A stretch of 64,000 nucleotides of DNA from Escherichia phage 308Ecol101PP. Within the stretch, counting starts at the first letter, position 1; every line of letters begins with the position of its first letter. A program made the position numbers and the translations under genes. Below, in pieces: positions 4,579 to 62,151 of the stretch. Under the pieces are notes generated by a model. The model had not been told where the DNA came from and ran no database searches. It saw nothing but the letters and a program-made list of their open reading frames with translations. The DNA is taken from the sequence record OR062945.1. The stretch is one strand, 5' to 3'.

Positions 4579-4866
4579 ATGAAAACCTATAAAGAATTTA
4601 TATCACCTGTTGCTAACGTTTCTACTCTGACCGAAGCAACCCTTACTTCCGAAGTTATTAAAGCAAATAAAGGACGTGAGGGTAAACCAATGATTAGTCT
4701 GGTTGACGGCGAAGAAGTAAAAGGTACTGTTTACTTAGGGGATGGATGGTCTGCTAAGAAAGATGGCGCTACTATTGTTATCTCTCCGGCTGAAGAGACT
4801 GCACTGTTTAAAGCTAAGCATATTTCTGTAGCTCAGCTTAAAATTATTGCAAAAACTCTTCTGTAA
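4579..4866 (+). CDS. Internal protein I-like capsid-targeted protein
   Basis: N-terminal MKTYKEFISPV... capsid-targeting leader; 95 aa; position next to 57B as T4 ipI; promoter cassette at 4515. Confidence 0.7.
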   Translation: MKTYKEFISPVANVSTLTEATLTSEVIKANKGREGKPMISLVDGEEVKGTVYLGDGWSAKKDGATIVISPAEETALFKAKHISVAQLKIIAKTLL

Positions 4867-4935: not shown

Positions 4936-5199
4936 ATGAAAACGTATAAAGAATTTATCGCTGAATCTCAATCTTCTACTCTGTCAGAGAACTACGAATC
5001 ATTCTCTTACAACAACGACCATGCAATGTTCTACGACCGAAACATCGGTACTTATGTCCATGTATGGGGTGTTAAAGATGGTAACGTAGTTGTTAAGAAA
5101 AACTCTAAAGAAGGCAATGGTCGTGGCCAGGTAAAAATTACCAGCAAGAAAGCTATCCAAGCTTACGTCGATTATGTTAAACGCGAAGCTGGTATTTAA
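4936..5199 (+). CDS. Capsid-targeted internal-protein-like protein
   Basis: Starts MKTYKEFIAESQ (CTS leader) at internal ATG 4936; promoter cassette at 4870. Confidence 0.65.
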   Translation: MKTYKEFIAESQSSTLSENYESFSYNNDHAMFYDRNIGTYVHVWGVKDGNVVVKKNSKEGNGRGQVKITSKKAIQAYVDYVKREAGI

Positions 5200-5201
5200 T
5201 A

Positions 5202-6697: not shown

Positions 6698-6772
6698 GGC
6701 CCTGTAGCTCAATGGGAGAGCTGTCAGCTCATAACTGATAGGTAGCTGGATCGAAACCAGCCAGGGTCACCA
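6698..6772 (+). tRNA. tRNA-Met (anticodon CAT; could be Ile2 if lysidinylated)
   Basis: Hand-folded cloverleaf: acceptor GGCCCTG/CAGGGTC, D stem GCTC/GAGC, anticodon stem GTCAG/CTGAT with loop CTCATAA, T arm GCTGG-ATCGAAA-CCAGC, encoded CCA. Confidence 0.8.
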
Positions 6773-6775
6773 ATT

Positions 6776-6852
<77 letters not shown>

Positions 6853-8889: not shown

Positions 8890-9117
8890 ATGGCTACAGT
8901 TAGTATTGATGTCGTTGATTATGAATACACCGAAGAAGTTATTCGCAGCCGTCACCCTGAAGTTCGTATCGATTCAGTCCAAGATTCCAAGTTTTGGACA
9001 ACCGAGCTTAATCTGAGTGGTCCTTATGAAGCTGTTAAGAAGTTCATGGTTGAAGAATACTGCGAAGGCATGCACCCCGAAGACGCCGAGTTTTATGTCA
9101 ATTTGATTAAAAAATAA
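8890..9117 (+). CDS. Hypothetical acidic protein
   Basis: Promoter 8832, SD GAGGAGA; 75 aa. Confidence 0.6.
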   Translation: MATVSIDVVDYEYTEEVIRSRHPEVRIDSVQDSKFWTTELNLSGPYEAVKKFMVEEYCEGMHPEDAEFYVNLIKK

Positions 9118-9125
9118 TTTACAAA

Positions 9126-9161
9126 CTCTTGAGAGCAGAGTATAATGCTCTCGTTGGATAA
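9126..9161 (+). promoter_or_regulatory. Early promoter cassette with IR GAGAGC / GCTCTC around TATAAT
   Basis: TTTACA -35, TATAAT -10 at 9150-9155; near-identical copy at 39400. Confidence 0.6.
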
Positions 9162-9187
9162 TAAACCACCAATTGAAAGGTAATAAT

Positions 9188-9781
9188 ATGAACACACTGA
9201 AGAAACTTGTTGAATTCATCCGCACTAAACTTGGTACTGCTATGGCTAAAAATCTGACTGTCGAAGAACAGTATAACGCAGCTGCAGATAAGTTGATTAC
9301 CCAAATCAAAGAACTAAAAACGGCTTCTGTTAAATCTATTAATGAAGAAAAACGTATTCGCGAACTTGTTATTGAAAAGAATAAGCAAGCCGCTTCTAAG
9401 GAACGTGAAATTCGTAAGCTCTTGGCTGAAGGACAAGATGTTACCATGCATGCCAAGCTTGGTCTTCTGTATCGTCGAACTGCCGAACAACTTAATACAA
9501 AAGCTGACGGGTACGCTGCTATGCGAATTGAAATTGCTCGTAAGGTGGTTGAACTTGATGATGCTCGTCAGAACCTGGCAATCAAACTCGAATACATTCG
9601 TGAAACTCGAGCAGCCAATGCCCTTGGTATCTCTACGGCTGATGATGTAATTGAAATCGCTGCACTGACTAAGGTTGATATCGAAGACACTCTGACTCGT
9701 GTTGAAACGTTCAATGGCACTCCAGCTGGTGTCGAAACCACTTCTGCTGATGTACAAGAATATATTAACTCTTTGAAATAA
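9188..9781 (+). CDS. Coiled-coil protein (PspA/IM30-like?)
   Basis: Promoter cassette 9126; long heptad-rich helical sequence; terminator hairpin at 9790. Confidence 0.65.
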
Positions 9782-9789
9782 AATAATAC

Positions 9790-9812
9790 GGAGGACTCCG
9801 GTCCTCCTTTTG
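9790..9812 (+). terminator. Rho-independent terminator
   Basis: GGAGGAC-TCCG-GTCCTCC then TTTTGG. Confidence 0.65.
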
Positions 9813-9830
9813 GATAATAAAGGAGTTAAC

Positions 9831-13215: not shown

Positions 13216-13253
13216 GTTTACAAGGTCTGTAGTTGTTGATACTATAGACCTAT
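13216..13253 (+). promoter_or_regulatory. Early promoter stem-loop cassette (PeSL-like)
   Basis: GTTTAC; IR GGTCTGTAG / CTATAGACC. Confidence 0.55.
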
Positions 13254-13282
13254 CAAAACAAATGAGTGAATGGAGATACAAA

Positions 13283-13483
13283 ATGACTACTTTGAATAAA
13301 CGTTTCGGTAAAGCTAAACCTGGCTGTGCAGCAGAACGTCGTTACATTTTCGCTCAGTTAGAAGATGTAGAGTATCAGATTAATCAAGTTCACATTACTG
13401 GCATCGAGCCTATGTGTGGCCTTGAAGCTCTTCGTGAAGTTCGTGACGGGTATCGTCGTGATATCGAAGAAATGTCAAAATAA
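13283..13483 (+). CDS. Hypothetical protein
   Basis: Promoter cassette 13216; SD GGAGA before ATG 13283 (alternative start 13262). Confidence 0.55.
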   Translation: MTTLNKRFGKAKPGCAAERRYIFAQLEDVEYQINQVHITGIEPMCGLEALREVRDGYRRDIEEMSK

Positions 13484-13522
13484 GTGTACAAACTGATAGG
13501 GCTATGTTATAGTAGTCCTATT
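13484..13522 (+). promoter_or_regulatory. Early promoter stem-loop cassette (PeSL-like)
   Basis: GTGTAC; IR GATAGGGCTA / TAGTCCTATT. Confidence 0.55.
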
Positions 13523-16509: not shown

Positions 16510-16564
16510 GTTTACTTCCTCCAAGGGTTTTGATACTATACATTCATCAACTACTTGGAGGAAA
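16510..16564 (+). promoter_or_regulatory. Early promoter cassette; IR pairs an anti-SD segment with the denV SD
   Basis: GTTTAC; TTCCTCCAAG (16517-16526) complementary to CTTGGAGGAA (16555-16564), which holds the SD; -10 TACTAT inside the loop. Confidence 0.6.
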
Positions 16565-16566
16565 TT

Positions 16567-16980
16567 ATGACTCGTATCAATTTAACACTTGTTTCTGAAC
16601 TGACCGACCAACATCTTATGGCTGAGTATCGTGAATTACCACGCGTATTTGGTGCAGTCCGTAAACATGTTCAAAACGGTAAACGTGTAAAGGATTTTAA
16701 AATCTCTCCAACATTTATCTTAGGCACAGGTCACGTAACATTCTTTTACGACAAACTCGAATTTTTACGTTTACGTCAAATCGAGCTAATCGCCGAATGC
16801 TTGAAACGTGGTTTCAAAATCAAGGACACATCTGTCCAAGATATTTCCGACATCCCTGCCGAATTTCGTAATAATTATGTCCCGTCCGAAGCGTCCATTG
16901 CGATAAGTCAAGCACGCTTAGATGAAAAAATTGCTCAGCGCCCGACTTGGTACAAATACTATGGTAAATCAATTTACTAA
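16567..16980 (+). CDS. denV: Endonuclease V (pyrimidine dimer DNA glycosylase)
   Basis: [35 protein letters not shown]...[10 protein letters not shown] matches T4 DenV. Confidence 0.95.
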
Positions 16981-19726: not shown

Positions 19727-19777
19727 GTTTACTTCTCCTCTAGTTGTGTTACTATAGACCTGTCAACTAGAGGAGAA
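19727..19777 (+). promoter_or_regulatory. Early promoter stem-loop cassette; 14-bp perfect IR pairing anti-SD with SD
   Basis: GTTTAC; TTCTCCTCTAGTTG / CAACTAGAGGAGAA flanking TGTTACTATAGACCTGT. Confidence 0.65.
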
Positions 19778-19783
19778 ATCAAA

Positions 19784-20242
19784 ATGACTATCAATTCAGA
19801 CGTTTTTATCCGCCGCAATAAACTCCGTCGAATCTTTGAAACGGAGTTCCGCAAAATAAATGCCGGTATAAAAGATGCTGCAAAGTCTCTTGGACTACCA
19901 GGCTTTCATATCAAGTATTCTCAACATCTCTTAGATCGTGCCATCCAGAGAGAAATAGATGAGAACTACGTTTTTGAATTATTTCGTAAAGTAAAAAATC
20001 ATGTTAAAGAAGTTGCAGAATTTTTATCAATGCCGGCACGTCCAGATGTTGATGAAGATTTTGTCGAAGGTGTCGAATACCGTCCAGGCCGTTTAGAAAT
20101 AACTGACGGAAATCTTTGGTTAGGACTTACAGTTTGTCGCGAAAATCCAGCATTCAAAATGAAGACTCTTCAATGCAGAATGGCTATTATTAACAGTAAA
20201 CGACTACCAGGAAAAGCTTCTAAAGCAGTGATTAAAATCTAG
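19784..20242 (+). CDS. regB: RegB-like endoribonuclease (tentative)
   Basis: 152 aa (T4 RegB is 153 aa); lies between denV and tk as regB does in T4; promoter cassette 19727; call rests on size, position and partial recall of the sequence. Confidence 0.55.
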   Translation: MTINSDVFIRRNKLRRIFETEFRKINAGIKDAAKSLGLPGFHIKYSQHLLDRAIQREIDENYVFELFRKVKNHVKEVAEFLSMPARPDVDEDFVEGVEYRPGRLEITDGNLWLGLTVCRENPAFKMKTLQCRMAIINSKRLPGKASKAVIKI

Positions 20243-23379: not shown

Positions 23380-23431
23380 GTTTACTTCTCCTCAGGTTGT
23401 GTTATAGTAGACCTTACTTACTAGAGGAGAA
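23380..23431 (+). promoter_or_regulatory. Early promoter stem-loop cassette
   Basis: GTTTAC; TTCTCCTC / GAGGAGAA IR; -10 TGTTATAGT. Confidence 0.55.
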
Positions 23432-23435
23432 CGTT

Positions 23436-29907: not shown

Positions 29908-29936
29908 TGTACAACCAGGGATGGTTGGAGTATAAT
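29908..29936 (+). promoter_or_regulatory. Early promoter (TGTACA, 17 nt spacer with CAACCA/TGGTTG hairpin, TATAAT)
   Basis: Near-identical to promoter at 30903. Confidence 0.55.
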
Positions 29937-29962
29937 AAATTTTTCAACATGAGGAATATAAA

Positions 29963-30902: not shown

Positions 30903-30932
30903 GTTTACAACCAAGGATGGTTGGAGTATAAT
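30903..30932 (+). promoter_or_regulatory. Early promoter (GTTTAC, spacer hairpin, TATAAT)
   Basis: Near-identical to promoter at 29908. Confidence 0.55.
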
Positions 30933-30960
30933 CTTTCTATCTTAACGAGAGGAAAATATT

Positions 30961-33360: not shown

Positions 33361-33531
33361 ATGCAAGTTAAATTATTGTACCGTTTATTAAAAAATGGCA
33401 AGCATGATTGGTATTTGCTTATTAAAACCGATCCGAATTTTTTCTCTGGACAACCATTTACAGTTCGTCCTACTAAACGTCAGCTTCGCAAAGCTAAACG
33501 TTCCCATCGTAACTTTTATAGAGAATATTGA
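33361..33531 (+). CDS. Small basic protein, VRPTKRQ-tail family
   Basis: C-terminal ...FTVRPTKRQLRKAKRSHRNFYREY. Confidence 0.5.
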   Translation: MQVKLLYRLLKNGKHDWYLLIKTDPNFFSGQPFTVRPTKRQLRKAKRSHRNFYREY

Positions 33532-33955: not shown

Positions 33956-34135
33956 ATGAAAACTGCATTATTTTTTGGCGAAAGAACAAACGGTCAAAAA
34001 TCTTGGAAATTTGTTATAATTGGTGCTCCAAACAATCCGAACATGAGGACTTCAATCATTTCGGTAACACGTCCTACTAAAAGAATGATTCGCCAATACA
34101 AACGTTTCCATCGTGACTTTTATAACATTTATTAA
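33956..34135 (+). CDS. Small basic protein, VRPTKRQ-tail family (59 aa)
   Basis: MKTALFFGERTNGQKSWKFVIIG...SVTRPTKRMIRQYKRFHRDFYNIY; paralog of 33361 ORF; below ORF-track threshold. Confidence 0.45.
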   Translation: MKTALFFGERTNGQKSWKFVIIGAPNNPNMRTSIISVTRPTKRMIRQYKRFHRDFYNIY

Positions 34136-38899: not shown

Positions 38900-39096
38900 A
38901 TCCTGAAAATATTGTGTCATGGCAACTTCGTGAAGAACGTGCCGAATTCTTTGCCAATATGAAACTCAACGGCGTTGAGGACGAAGACTTTTTACGTTGG
39001 TTCTGGATTTACAAATACAAAGAATGCCAGCACGCTGTACTACTGACTTGTGCAGCTATGTATGAAGGCTGGAAAGGCGCTAAAAAGTTCGGTTAA
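38896..39096 (+). CDS. Hypothetical protein
   Basis: 66 aa, ATGA-coupled. Confidence 0.5.
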   Translation: MNPENIVSWQLREERAEFFANMKLNGVEDEDFLRWFWIYKYKECQHAVLLTCAAMYEGWKGAKKFG

Positions 39097-39099
39097 TAA

Positions 39100-39138
39100 T
39101 GTACAACGATAGGAAGACGTGTTATTATCTTCCTATCG
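39100..39138 (+). promoter_or_regulatory. Early promoter stem-loop cassette
   Basis: TGTACA; IR CGATAGGAAGA / TCTTCCTATCG flanking GTGTTATTAT. Confidence 0.6.
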
Positions 39139-39159
39139 TCTTAAAATGAGGAAAATATC

Positions 39160-39399
39160 ATGGAACAAGAATTAGACGTTATTACATCGAAAAAACGTCT
39201 TGAAGTCGTAGTGAATGGCTCAACTATTAAGTTTGTATATGACACTTTAACTGATGCTATTACCGTTAGTTGTGGTGGAAAGGCTTTTAGTCTAGATTCT
39301 ACTGAAAACAAATACCCGTTCTATAAAGGTATCTTTGATATGGGTGTTGATATCAGTGTTCGTCAAGCAAACTATTTACATTATCTTATCACGGAATAA
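39160..39399 (+). CDS. Hypothetical protein
   Basis: Promoter cassette 39100; SD GAGGAAAA. Confidence 0.55.
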   Translation: MEQELDVITSKKRLEVVVNGSTIKFVYDTLTDAITVSCGGKAFSLDSTENKYPFYKGIFDMGVDISVRQANYLHYLITE

Positions 39400-39434
39400 T
39401 GCACAAACTCTTGAGAGCAGAGTATAATGCTCTC
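39400..39434 (+). promoter_or_regulatory. Early promoter cassette, duplicate of the 9126 cassette
   Basis: AATGCACAAACTCTTGAGAGCAGAGTATAATGCTCTC, nearly identical over about 40 nt to 9124-9161. Confidence 0.6.
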
Positions 39435-39467
39435 TCATTGGATAATAAAATAACCGAGGAAAATAAT

Positions 39468-39800
39468 ATGTCTACTAAAATCAAAAACGTAGTTAATTCT
39501 TTCGCTTTCGATAAAGTTGTTGCTCTTCTGGAATCCGGCAATATTGTTACTCCTCAAGTCCTTGACGCGTGGGAATTCCGTCTTTATGAAATCATGCAAA
39601 AACACGACCAGAAAATTGGACGTAATTCTATTCGTGAAATTCTAGTACAATATATTCTTTCTGAATTTGACGTTGCTGCATTTGGTGTTGAATCTAAAGC
39701 TTATCAGAAACATGAAATCTCTGAAAAGACTATCCGTCGTATGAAAAATCAACGTAAGAAAAAATTCGTTGACCTGAAAATTGTTAAGGCGGTAAAATGA
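39468..39800 (+). CDS. Hypothetical protein
   Basis: Promoter cassette 39400; SD GAGGAAAA then ATG 39468. Confidence 0.6.
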   Translation: MSTKIKNVVNSFAFDKVVALLESGNIVTPQVLDAWEFRLYEIMQKHDQKIGRNSIREILVQYILSEFDVAAFGVESKAYQKHEISEKTIRRMKNQRKKKFVDLKIVKAVK

Positions 39801-40362: not shown

Positions 40363-40920
40363 ATGACTGAACAAAAACCTAAAAATAACTATGTGAATAA
40401 TAAAGAGCTTCTCGCCGCTATAATCGAGTGGAAAAAGGAGCTCTTAAATAATAAAGACCCAAACAAAATTATTCGTCAGAATGATACCATCGGTTTAGCA
40501 ATTATGCTTATCGCCGAAGGCCTGTCCAAACGTTTCAACTTTTCAGGATATACCCAGTCTTGGAAGCAGGAGATGATTGCAGATGGGATTGAAGCCTCTA
40601 TTAAGGGACTTCATAATTTCGACGAAACTAAGTACAATAACCCACATGCATACATAACTCGAGCTTGTTTTAATGCTTTTGTCCAACGTATCAAAAAAGA
40701 ACGTAAGGAAGTTGCAAAGAAATATAGTTACTTCGTTCATAATGTCTACGACAGTCATGACGATGATATGGTAGCGTTGGTAGATGAAACGTTTATTCAA
40801 GACATCTACGATAAAATGACGCATTATGAAGAATCCGCTTATAAAGCTCCTGGGGCTGAAAAGAAGGAAGTTGTTAGCGATTCGCCTAGTTTGGATTTTT
40901 TATATGAGGATGACAATTGA
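40363..40920 (+). CDS. 55: Late-transcription sigma factor gp55
   Basis: [117 protein letters not shown]...: near-identical to T4 gp55. Confidence 0.95.
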
Positions 40921-43181: not shown

Positions 43182-43407
43182 TTATGAAATCCATCGTCAT
43201 GAATTTAGTATTGGTGACGGTTATATTGGTGTCGTTGAATGGACTGAGAATTACGAGGAATCAACTCCTCGTTTCTTTGGAACAATGTATGTTACCTGTG
43301 AGTACGCGCCAGGTGTTGTTATTTATGCAGAACTAGATGAATATTTTGCTGATAGAGATGACATGTTAAAATATGTAGAGGACTTCATTCGAAGAGAATA
43401 CATATGA
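43168..43407 (+). CDS. Hypothetical protein
   Basis: ATG 43168 overlaps upstream gene end. Confidence 0.5.
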   Translation: MTKTDYEIHRHEFSIGDGYIGVVEWTENYEESTPRFFGTMYVTCEYAPGVVIYAELDEYFADRDDMLKYVEDFIRREYI

Positions 43408-48467: not shown

Positions 48468-48474
48468 AGCAATG

Positions 48475-48494
48475 GGACTTCGGTCCCATTTGGA
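48475..48494 (+). terminator. Terminator-like hairpin after regA
   Basis: GGGAC-TTCG-GTCCC then ATTTGG. Confidence 0.5.
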
Positions 48495-48548
48495 GTATAA
48501 TAAGTTCATCAACAAACAAAAGACAATAACTCGTCTAAAGGAAATTAA

Positions 48549-60942: not shown

Positions 60943-60996
60943 GTTTACATCTTCCTCTAGGCATGATACGATGTACTTACACCAACCAAGAGGAAA
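60943..60996 (+). promoter_or_regulatory. Early promoter cassette with anti-SD/SD inverted repeat
   Basis: GTTTAC; TTCCTCT ... AGAGGAA. Confidence 0.5.
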
Positions 60997-61001
60997 ACAT
61001 T

Positions 61002-61376: not shown

Positions 61377-61427
61377 GTTTACTTCTCCAGTAGTTGTGTT
61401 ATTATAGACCTATCAACTACTGGAGAA
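61377..61427 (+). promoter_or_regulatory. Early promoter stem-loop cassette; 14-bp perfect IR
   Basis: GTTTAC; TTCTCCAGTAGTTG / CAACTACTGGAGAA; differs from the 19727 copy by compensatory changes. Confidence 0.65.
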
Positions 61428-61431
61428 CAAA

Positions 61432-61749
61432 ATGAAAACCATCGATTGTAAAGCAGAATTTAAGATTTTTTATCACGGTTCAAGTAGTTCAGCTAACATC
61501 GAAAACATGCTTTGTCCTCCTGAGGAAACAGGAGTTCTGTCTGAAACCGGACGTAAGAAAAACTTGGATCGTGTATTCTTTACTGAAGATATCGGTTTAG
61601 CAAAGATTTATGCAGGACGAGCAGCACGCTCTTATGGAGGTGAACCACGTCTCTATCGAGTAATTTCTCCGGTAGACGTAGTTCAAATGAATGATACTAA
61701 AGGTGCTACAGTTTATCACGCTGAATGGGCATTTTGTGAGGAAATATGA
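61432..61749 (+). CDS. Hypothetical protein
   Basis: Promoter cassette 61377; SD GGAGAA. Confidence 0.6.
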   Translation: MKTIDCKAEFKIFYHGSSSSANIENMLCPPEETGVLSETGRKKNLDRVFFTEDIGLAKIYAGRAARSYGGEPRLYRVISPVDVVQMNDTKGATVYHAEWAFCEEI

Positions 61750-61938: not shown

Positions 61939-62151
61939 ATGTATTCAACTGTGTTTAAACCATCAACATACGAATTTGCATCAACTACACAATGGAAAGC
62001 TCTTATTCTGGAAGGATGGGAACTAATGATGGACTGTGAAGCATCTGAAAAGTTTCCGCACGGCAAAGTGGACTTCGTTAAATTTGCTGTACGTCCGACT
62101 AAACGACAGATTCGTCAAGAAAAACGCAAATTTCGCAAAAGTTTAAAATAA
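61939..62151 (+). CDS. Small basic protein, VRPTKRQ-tail family
   Basis: C-terminal ...FAVRPTKRQIRQEKRKFRKSLK; SD GAGGATAA then ATG 61939. Confidence 0.5.
   Translation: MYSTVFKPSTYEFASTTQWKALILEGWELMMDCEASEKFPHGKVDFVKFAVRPTKRQIRQEKRKFRKSLK

Follow-up and report, generated by a model that had tools for sequence, protein, structure and literature searches.

We analysed a 64,000-nucleotide stretch of Escherichia phage 308Ecol101PP (OR062945.1; hereafter, the window), in which a short intergenic repeat precedes two genes about 30 kb apart. The window belongs to an RB69/JS09-like Mosigvirus and shows 96-99% identity to many coliphages. Each copy of the repeat makes up the whole gap between two small early genes, frd.3 and e.6 for copy 1 and ORF075c and 55.2 for copy 2, and lies between the stop codon of the first and the Shine-Dalgarno sequence (SD) and ATG of the second. 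All genes around both copies are on the + strand, and both copies sit in regions of small open reading frames (ORFs) that differ among relatives. The two loci contain the following features (RegB/S1 refers to RegB and ribosomal protein S1).

8890 to 9117, + strand: frd.3 homolog, upstream of copy 1 (ORF, 75 aa; Pfam Phage_FRD3, E=4e-37; RB69 annotation frd.3)
9118 to 9146, + strand: putative sigma-70 early promoter of copy 1 (11/12 match to the consensus; from the promoter census)
9131 to 9152, + strand: predicted hairpin of copy 1, with arms GAGAGCA (9131-9137) and TGCTCTC (9146-9152) and a loop, GAGTATAA, containing the -10
9156 to 9166, + strand: RegB/S1-type motif of copy 1, GGATAATAAAC, at +4 to +14 of the predicted leader
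9188 to 9781, + strand: e.6 homolog, downstream of copy 1 (ORF, 197 aa; RB69 annotation e.6)
39160 to 39399, + strand: RB69ORF075c homolog, upstream of copy 2 (79 aa; allele A; RB69 annotation)
39400 to 39428, + strand: putative promoter of copy 2 (10/12 match to the consensus)
39413 to 39434, + strand: predicted hairpin of copy 2, with arms GAGAGCA (39413-39419) and TGCTCTC (39428-39434) and the -10 in the loop
39440 to 39450, + strand: RegB/S1-type motif of copy 2, GGATAATAAAA (tail AAUAAAA, 7/7), at +6 to +16 of the predicted leader
39468 to 39800, + strand: 55.2 homolog, downstream of copy 2 (110 aa; Pfam DUF7570, E=4.8e-40; RB69 annotation)

The stop codon of the frd.3 homolog (TAA, 9115-9117) directly abuts the -35 hexamer of copy 1, and that of the ORF075c homolog (TAA, 39397-39399) is followed by the -35 of copy 2, which starts at 39400. 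Downstream, the e.6 homolog has its SD, AAGG, at 9177-9180 and its ATG at 9188, and the 55.2 homolog has its SD, GAGG, at 39456-39459 and its ATG at 39468.

The two copies shared an exact 32-mer, ACAAACTCTTGAGAGCAGAGTATAATGCTCTC (9121-9152 and 39403-39434), which still had just two matches in the window when up to three mismatches were allowed, and none in any of 100 dinucleotide-preserving shuffles. With the flanks included, the alignment AATAAT[TT/GC]ACAAAC...GCTCTC[--G/TCA]TTGGATAATAAA[C/A] was identical at about 50 of 56 positions. The similarity starts at AATAAT, which covers the upstream gene's stop codon, and ends at GGATAATAAA[C/A], with a 2-nt indel 3' of the stem; the 12-mer TTGGATAATAAA occurs at 9154, 9810, and 39438. 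The original prediction had placed near-identical strings at 9124 and 39398. Both are present, the second exactly as given, while the first begins at 9116, 8 nt away, position 9124 being the first base of the promoter spacer of copy 1. As predicted, GATAATAAA was found after both copies, and the downstream genes were unrelated, BLASTP of their proteins yielding no alignment. The proteins encoded upstream of the two copies are likewise unrelated (E=4.1).

The description as a promoter cassette also held, both copies being sigma-70 early promoters of one conserved subfamily. In copy 1, the -35 TTTACA (9118-9123) is separated by a 17-nt spacer (9124-9140) from the -10 TATAAT (9141-9146); in copy 2, a degenerate -35, TGCACA (39400-39405), is followed at the same spacing by TATAAT (39423-39428). 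With start sites placed about 7 nt past the -10, transcription would begin near 9153 and 39435, respectively. The A+T content of the approximately 27 nt 5' of the -35 was about 89% in copy 1 and about 75% in copy 2, as counted by eye, the window mean being about 63%. Neither copy has an extended -10 (TGn, the T4 'uber' promoter element, PMC2988021), since GAG precedes TATAAT, while TGT precedes the -10 in many other early promoters of the window. The -35 of copy 2 was found to vary among Mosigvirus relatives (TGCACA, CGCACA, TATACA, and TATATA); in Dhaka-like phages it is GTTTACA. A census gave about 27 intergenic T4-type early promoters on the + strand of the window, and the repeat is one subfamily among these cassettes. 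The earlier proposal that the copies mark co-regulated genes is plausible, their promoters belonging to one subfamily. Inspection by eye of the GGATAATAAA block led us to reject a MotA-box middle promoter (no TGCTT at a suitable distance) and a late promoter (TATAAATA is not there).

The spacer and the bases past the -10 are predicted to fold into a hairpin, the left arm lying within the spacer and the right arm beginning at the final T of TATAAT. The fold of 9124-9160 had an energy of -12.6 kcal/mol (z=-3.3), and a lower stem is possible in copy 1 across 9127-9158 (UCU/GGA). The copy 2 hairpin was found in both the minimum-energy and the centroid folds, and the hairpin appeared in the centroid fold of both 100-nt contexts. 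Compared with shuffled spacers, the stem had a p value of 0.006 in copy 1 and 0.022 in copy 2.

Further evidence for this helix came from related sequences. In 16 distinct family members, 98.2% of stem cells were paired, versus 37-50% when the partner was slid; double-sided changes were seen in five of the seven stem pairs, and none of 500 shuffles reached the covariation score. The blocks ACAAACTCTT and GAGTATAAT were invariant in the family, while the arms varied (GAGAGCA/TGCTCTC, GGGACCA/TGGTCCC(T), GGGAGCA/TGCTCC(C/T), GGGGTCA/TGACCCC, GGGGCCA/TGGTCCC, GGGATCA/TGGTCCT, AGGAGCA/TGCTCCT, and GAGAGAT/TTCTCTC). At the site of copy 2, the TH12 ortholog has a G.U variant of the stem and RB69 a compensated GAGAGA/TCTCTC stem. 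The wobble pairs of the family were all G.U on the sense strand, with no A.C pair, and in 32 other distinct Mosigvirus promoter stems G.T outnumbered A.C by 7 to 1 (p=0.07). This asymmetry, together with the stepwise intermediates (A-U, G.U, G-C), points to an RNA helix in sense transcripts, not a DNA palindrome, as the target of selection.

Comparable stems are common among the early promoters of the window. In 13 of the 27, the spacer pairs perfectly with downstream sequence over 7 bp or more (each p<0.05 against shuffled spacers; combined p~1e-12), and several further promoters form such a stem with one G.T. They fall into two classes. In the first, which comprises the cassette studied here and the abundant GATAGGACTA/TAGTCCTATC type, the right arm directly follows the -10; in the second, the downstream gene's SD forms the right arm, as at 19728 (upstream of regB), 61378, and 16511. 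Helices of 7-13 bp between an early-promoter spacer and an SD were observed at 19728-19790, 61378-61432, 16511-16570, 23381-23435, and 60944-61000, the one upstream of regB being TCTCCTCTAGTTG/CAACTAGAGGAGA. At such promoters, the SD, itself a GGAG RegB-type motif as well, would be hidden in read-through RNA and exposed in local RNA.

Directly after the hairpin, both copies contain the sequence GGAUAAUAAA[C/A], with GGAT at 9156 and 39440, which resembles the target of the T4 endoribonuclease RegB acting with ribosomal protein S1. This target is an 11-nt single-stranded RNA, GGA[G/U]RAYARAA, with GGAGAAUAAAA as the T4 optimum; the RegB consensus is given as GGAGRAYARAA, C being excluded at positions 5, 6, and 9 (PMC1702504). 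The motB transcript, in which positions 5-11 read U, A, U, A, A, A, A, is the model RegB substrate (PMC1702504), and this described tail is the GGAGTATAAAA that follows the stem in the T4 member of the family. In copy 2, the motif is identical to the GGATAATAAAA found upstream of T4 55.2. In copy 1, the tail is AAUAAAC, with a C at position 11 that is off the published consensus, so that it scores 7/7 by a relaxed rule only (U permitted at position 5 and C at position 11). By this relaxed rule the window contained 21 RegB-like sites; seven sites on the + strand had a 7/7 tail, and only those of copies 1 and 2 lay in a leader rather than at an SD. The phage encodes this enzyme, and we propose it as the trans-acting partner for the cassette leaders:

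19784 to 20242, + strand: regB (Pfam REGB_T4, E=8.8e-69; RB69 annotation regB)

A GGA[G/T] was present 2-5 nt 3' of the stem in every family member folded. In the window as a whole, a hairpin ended at most 6 nt upstream of 6 of the 21 RegB-like motifs, versus 7 of 256 other GGA[GT] sites (odds ratio 14, p=1e-4). Among these six are the terminator that follows e.6 (9790-9822) and, at 48471-48502, a UUCG hairpin. At the former, the hairpin GGAGGAC-UCCG-GUCCUCC and UUUU stand directly before the RegB-type motif GGATAATAAAG; at the latter, GGGAC-UUCG-GUCCC and AUUU stand directly before GGAGTATAATA. A different combination was observed in two near-identical promoters 1 kb apart (29908-29940 and 30904-30936), which contain a small hairpin within the spacer (AACCA..TGGTT) and in which GGAGTATAAT makes the -10 also a RegB-like motif in read-through RNA.

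The repeat is real, as originally predicted, but it is not a two-copy element, since a complete relative has four copies and other genera have members. BLAST of a 91-nt region retrieved 763 phage records, with typically four places per Mosigvirus genome, and located the related T4 copy upstream of motB. In the complete genome of phiEC1, all four copies lie on one strand and precede ndd, 55.2, e.6, and an ORF of 99 aa, this last one being itself upstream of pseT. Taking BLAST and IMG/VR pattern scans together, the cassette occurs upstream of at least 10 different genes in the Tevenvirinae. Among the matches listed by relaxed IMG/VR pattern scans, we found chance sigma-70-like matches in unrelated phages and, after the stem filter, no additional family member. 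At the site upstream of 55.2 in Mosigvirus (site 2), the -35 is decaying while the hairpin, including its G.U variant, and the RegB motif are kept; upstream of T4 55.2, a hairpin and a RegB site are retained without a promoter.

The repeat observation is confirmed, but it is of a known kind and largely explained already. Promoter-early stem-loop (PeSL) cassettes have been described in T4-type phages by Arbiol et al. 2010 (PMC2839356) and Comeau et al. 2014 (PMC4122927); their stem-loops are mostly located between the two boxes of the promoter or overlap the -10, and G-T pairs are marked in them (PMC2839356). Judged by sequence, both copies are PeSLs. They are intergenic, reaching from the stop codon on their upstream side as far as the downstream SD and start codon, and have an A+T-rich upstream stretch, a sigma-70-like -35/N17/-10 arrangement, and a stem-loop that overlaps the -10, which is a common position in phi1/RB49, with G-T pairs. 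PeSLs in general occur in many copies in hyperplastic regions, and indels or replacements end at or near them. There are also differences. PeSLs were described for RB49/phi1, T4/PST, and KVP40/nt-1, RB69 being unmentioned in the 2010 paper. RB49 stems pair a G-tract with a C-tract and PST stems lie just upstream of the promoter, whereas here the arms are in the spacer and around +1. Finally, in the PeSL papers the stem-loop is interpreted as a terminator, with no link to RegB, whereas the subfamily of the window lacks a U tract and has a RegB/S1 motif directly after the stem. Added here are the covariation across the family as evidence for an RNA hairpin, the recognition of a RegB/S1 motif in the conserved tail, and the recurrence of the hairpin-then-RegB-site arrangement.

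Three T4 systems are also among the closest known. In the motB leader of T4 (Durand et al. 2006, PMC1702504), the cassette recurs as GTTTACAAACTCTTGGGACCAGAGTATAATGGTCCCGTGGAGTATAAAA, with a compensated stem, and GGAGUAUAAAA serves there as the model substrate of RegB/S1; its place is taken in the window copies by GGAUAAUAAA[C/A], but with U rather than G at position 4 of the motif, and the genes downstream are e.6 and 55.2, not motB. The region upstream of T4 orf 55.2 shares with copy 2 the downstream gene, an identical motif (GGAUAAUAAAA), and a hairpin directly before it; it differs in having an unrelated stem (GGGC-UUCG-GCCU) followed by UUUU, within the end of 55.3 and with no promoter. 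The third system consists of the internal-promoter hairpins of e, soc, 49, and I-TevI (PMC3014915), in which, similarly, the 5' arm of the helix lies upstream of the proximal start, so that long read-through transcripts fold and proximal ones do not. There, the promoter is late and the SD or AUG is hidden, whereas in our two cassettes the helix stops short of the SD; the same logic is repeated with early promoters and an SD helix at 19728, 61378, and 16511 of the window.

We consider it likely that both copies are conserved composite early-gene regulatory cassettes of T4-type phages, that is, PeSLs as Arbiol et al. 2010 used the term. The near-identity of two copies 30 kb apart would result from the overlap of three functions within about 50 nt. 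At the DNA level, a sigma-70 early promoter would start the adjacent downstream gene, e.6 for copy 1 and 55.2 for copy 2. At the RNA level, the spacer and the bases past the -10 would fold into a hairpin of 7-8 bp with the -10 in its loop; this hairpin would be confined to read-through RNA, because the predicted start is just 3' of it, and would most likely act there as a 3' cap or attenuator of the upstream message. The third function would be that of a RegB/S1 site, GGAUAAUAAA[C/A], cut by the phage's own RegB directly after the hairpin. In read-through RNA, this cut would leave the hairpin at the 3' end of the upstream fragment. In local RNA, it would strip off the 5'-triphosphate end and expose the early message to T4 polynucleotide kinase (PNK) and RNase G/E, as in the decay pathway reported to follow RegB cleavage, in which the 5'-OH end is phosphorylated by T4 PNK and the downstream RNA is degraded by RNase G/E (PMC3014915). 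A RegB motif at the predicted +4 or +6 fits rapid inactivation of early messages. As a by-product, a conserved cassette would provide a patch of homology at the edges of modules, where exchanges between co-infecting phages could end. The RNA module formed by the hairpin and the RegB site may moreover be selected in its own right, as suggested by the sequences at site 2, where the -35 is degenerate and the module is kept, and at T4 55.2, where the module is present without a promoter.

Several points weigh against this interpretation or restrict it. Both copies have U at position 4 of the motif, and 28 of 30 T4 intergenic GGAU sites resist RegB. The two that are cut are those of orf 55.2 and motB.2 (PMC1702504), and they carry the same A-rich tail as the window motifs. 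The GGAU of orf 55.2 is, like the T4 motB leader, an efficient RegB substrate, and in the motB context GGAU is cut more slowly than GGAG (PMC1702504). Furthermore, the GG of the motif is predicted to be paired (P 0.6-0.99) in both read-through and local RNA of the window copies, its A and the tail being mostly unpaired, and accessibility to RegB is therefore uncertain, because the enzyme needs single-stranded RNA. Copy 2 may be a weak or inactive promoter, as its -35, TGCACA, is poor and there is no TGn. The covariation sample consists of related sequences, so that the cell counts exceed the number of independent events. A terminator role of the hairpin is unsupported here, as there is neither a U tract nor a call by the terminator scan. 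Why the spacer AACTCTT does not vary has a tentative explanation only, namely that it pairs with GGA(G/U). Finally, for this phage we infer both the start sites and the cleavage by RegB, and the role of the hairpin is deduced in the same way.

With regard to the pairing of the motif, we considered a lower stem that masks GGA solely in read-through RNA. This was clear for the T4 motB type, in which the pairing probability was about 1.0 in read-through RNA versus 0.06 in local RNA, but not for the window copies, and we retain the idea as speculative only. Similarly, the possibility that the spacer CUCUU hides the downstream SD fitted two related loci (L006 and L013) and T4 motB; it failed for the window copies and was dropped as a general explanation.

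A more daring form of the preferred interpretation, which we regard as rather unlikely and offer tentatively, is that the cassette is a switch by which the promoter of origin decides the fate of the mRNA, the selected unit being the hairpin and RegB site, which could outlive the promoter. The 5' half of the hairpin and the spacer ACUCU, which can pair with GGA(G/U), are upstream of the local start. In read-through RNA, the helix would mask or frame the RegB site and cap the upstream message. Local RNA would expose the site 3-6 nt from its 5' end, so that the triphosphate would be quickly lost and the RNA degraded. Loss of the promoter with survival of the unit would have taken place at T4 55.2 and perhaps at copy 2. 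If true, this would tie promoter identity, transcript stability, and module exchange to one 50-nt element.

The main competitor of a composite cassette is a role in recombination. The original prediction had proposed that the copies are substrates for homologous recombination, and in the published PeSL hypothesis dispersed cassettes have this function (PMC2839356, PMC4122927). In its strong version, the copies, this pair included, exist and stay alike as linkers for module shuffling. We consider this possible, yet less than likely as their main role. We compared the window with five 50-kb stretches and one whole genome of relatives. At one related locus (L014), an extra module of promoter and ORF is inserted exactly at the -35 of copy 1, its 5' edge, with flanks TAATGCACAAAC and TAAGTGTACAAAC. 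The module 39085-39394, comprising a promoter at 39100 and ORF075c, is absent from six Dhaka-like loci, in which 55.3 is directly followed by the cassette and 55.2; its edges lie at -35 sequences, AATAATG[T/C]ACAA being present at 39093 and again at the 5' edge of copy 2. ORF075c occurs in two allelic forms that are about 20-25% divergent, and the divergence extends from its start codon to inside copy 2, past the right arm. Site 2 is a micro-mosaic, with five haplotypes among seven genomes, and in EP02SG it has a hybrid stem, with the left arm of one type and the right arm of the other, which recalls the loop-located crossovers reported for RB49. Loop-located crossovers and mini-circles have been shown experimentally in RB49/phi1 (PMC2839356). 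At another locus (L015, 300-960, IMGVR_UViG_2706795394), two family copies with different stems (GGGAGCA/TGTTCCC and GGGGTCA/TGACCCC) stand 412 nt apart around a single small ORF, which in its layout is the arrangement proposed to yield PeSL mini-circles.

The boundaries of modules and alleles at cassettes thus partly support the proposal, but exchange between these two copies is not supported. A junction between copy 1 and copy 2, in either form, was absent from all of 161-162 related genomes. By exchange between them, the intervening 30 kb would be deleted or circularised, together with the genes for lysozyme and endonuclease VII, which according to T4 genetics are needed for lysis and packaging. 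There was no structural breakpoint at either copy in five Mosigvirus relatives. Of 51 distinct breakpoints between the window and its relatives, 14 were in promoter cassettes, which cover 4.2% of the region (p=1.6e-8 under a uniform null); however, 37 of the 51 were at gene junctions of any kind. We rely on a gene-junction null, under which promoter-bearing junctions were broken in 10 of 22 cases versus 21 of 74 for the others, a 2.1-fold difference that is not significant (p=0.11). Stem arms diverge freely as long as pairing is kept, contrary to what selection for identity would give, and the identity of the copies is explained by the constraints of promoter, RNA stem, and RegB site, without any need for selection for recombination. 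For the exchanges suggested by these boundaries, we infer that homology in the cassette was their cause. We also considered ectopic conversion of copy 2 by copy 1 and did not retain it, since the import of an allele from another phage is an equally good explanation, the divergent patch covering the whole ORF075c allele; the sole hint of a short conversion patch at copy 2 is the hybrid stem of EP02SG.

Other indels were observed in the window. Textbook examples of the PeSL type are two window-specific modules of a single ORF, 4941-5200 and 13223-13484, each of which lies between two early-promoter cassettes (4871/5203 and 13217/13485). In pEK20, RB69, and phiEC1, just one cassette stands in place of each module, and this holds for the second module in EP02SG and TH12 too. 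At 43189-43405, about 215 bp in the window correspond to about 830 bp in pEK20 and phiEC1, with a breakpoint that has no promoter cassette, and pEK20 annotates a MobD-like homing endonuclease at the equivalent place, between genes 47 and 46.

It appears improbable that the hairpin is an intrinsic terminator for the upstream gene and overlaps the next promoter only incidentally. The hairpin begins 13 nt past the upstream stop codon, and the stem-loop of PeSL211/210 lowered reporter expression about as much as the rrnB T1 terminator (PMC2839356). However, the stem is just 7 bp long with three G-C pairs, the sequences that follow the two stems (GUUGGAUAAU and UCAUUGGAUA) contain no U tract, and the terminator scan called neither hairpin, yet did call the hairpin and TTTT at 9790-9807, 3' of e.6.

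Even less probable is a recent duplication or a mobile element, one copy being derived from the other with no shared function. It would account for the identical GAGAGCA/TGCTCTC stem of three Mosigvirus copies out of four, paralogs in other genera being different, and the core of copy 2 is unlike that of RB69 at this site, as could be the case if a paralog had overwritten it. Yet copies are present at the same site, upstream of 55.2, with compensated stems in several genera, and the copy at T4 motB is known to function as a promoter leader and a RegB site. In addition, the outer flanks are unrelated, the cassette is an intergenic spacer only, and a transposase, target-site duplication, and terminal repeats are all absent.

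Least probable is a palindrome acting in DNA, either as an operator over the -10 for a phage or host protein, such as an early-promoter shut-off factor, or as a cruciform that influences promoter opening or is a substrate of endonuclease VII: the centre of the dyad falls on the -10, neither the spacer AACTCTT nor the loop varies among genera, T4 early-promoter shut-off is described as incompletely understood (PMC3014915), and a protein binding the stem-loop was speculated on by Arbiol et al. (PMC2839356), but at least eight arm pairs exist with pairing alone conserved, unlike in a sequence-specific operator, G.T on the sense strand without A.C is expected of RNA and not of a DNA cruciform, a 7-bp arm with an 8-nt loop makes a poor cruciform, and other promoters have unrelated stems at the same position.

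If a composite cassette is the right interpretation, intergenic repeats of RB69-like phages are not noise but control elements that can be read from the sequence, which is of use for annotation, and the RB69 group provides a further case of PeSL module exchange at regulatory cassettes. Two cautions follow for evolutionary studies: gene junctions in general are prone to breakage, not just those that bear promoters, and stacked functional constraint accounts better than selection for recombination for dispersed copies being identical. The link between a PeSL-type hairpin and a RegB site would, if confirmed, join the literature on T4 genome plasticity with that on early mRNA decay.

Regarding the neighbouring genes, a Pfam scan of the e.6 homolog gave no match, and the late sigma gene 55 is located at 40363. 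The gene upstream of copy 1 (frd.3 homolog, 8890-9117) appears to have been relocated in the RB69 lineage, since in T4 frd.3 is a neighbour of frd, distant from the e.x region. Tandem genes for tRNA-Met(CAT) and tRNA-Arg(TCT) were present at 6698-6852, as in RB69; at gathering thresholds, Rfam identified these two tRNAs only in the window, the hairpin having no family.

Two other repeats were noticed in the window. A 55-nt direct repeat (family D8) occurs at 33466-33520, 34070-34124, and 62092-62146 with 65-80% identity, and apparently represents the 3' ends of paralogous genes just before promoters. Four small genes, starting at 4579, 4937, 16988, and 17311 (repeat families D7, D10, and D12), encode near-identical N-termini (MKTYKEFI / MKMYQEFIAE / MKTYQEFITE), and relatives annotate internal head proteins at these places; the shared N-terminus presumably resembles the capsid-targeting leader of T4.

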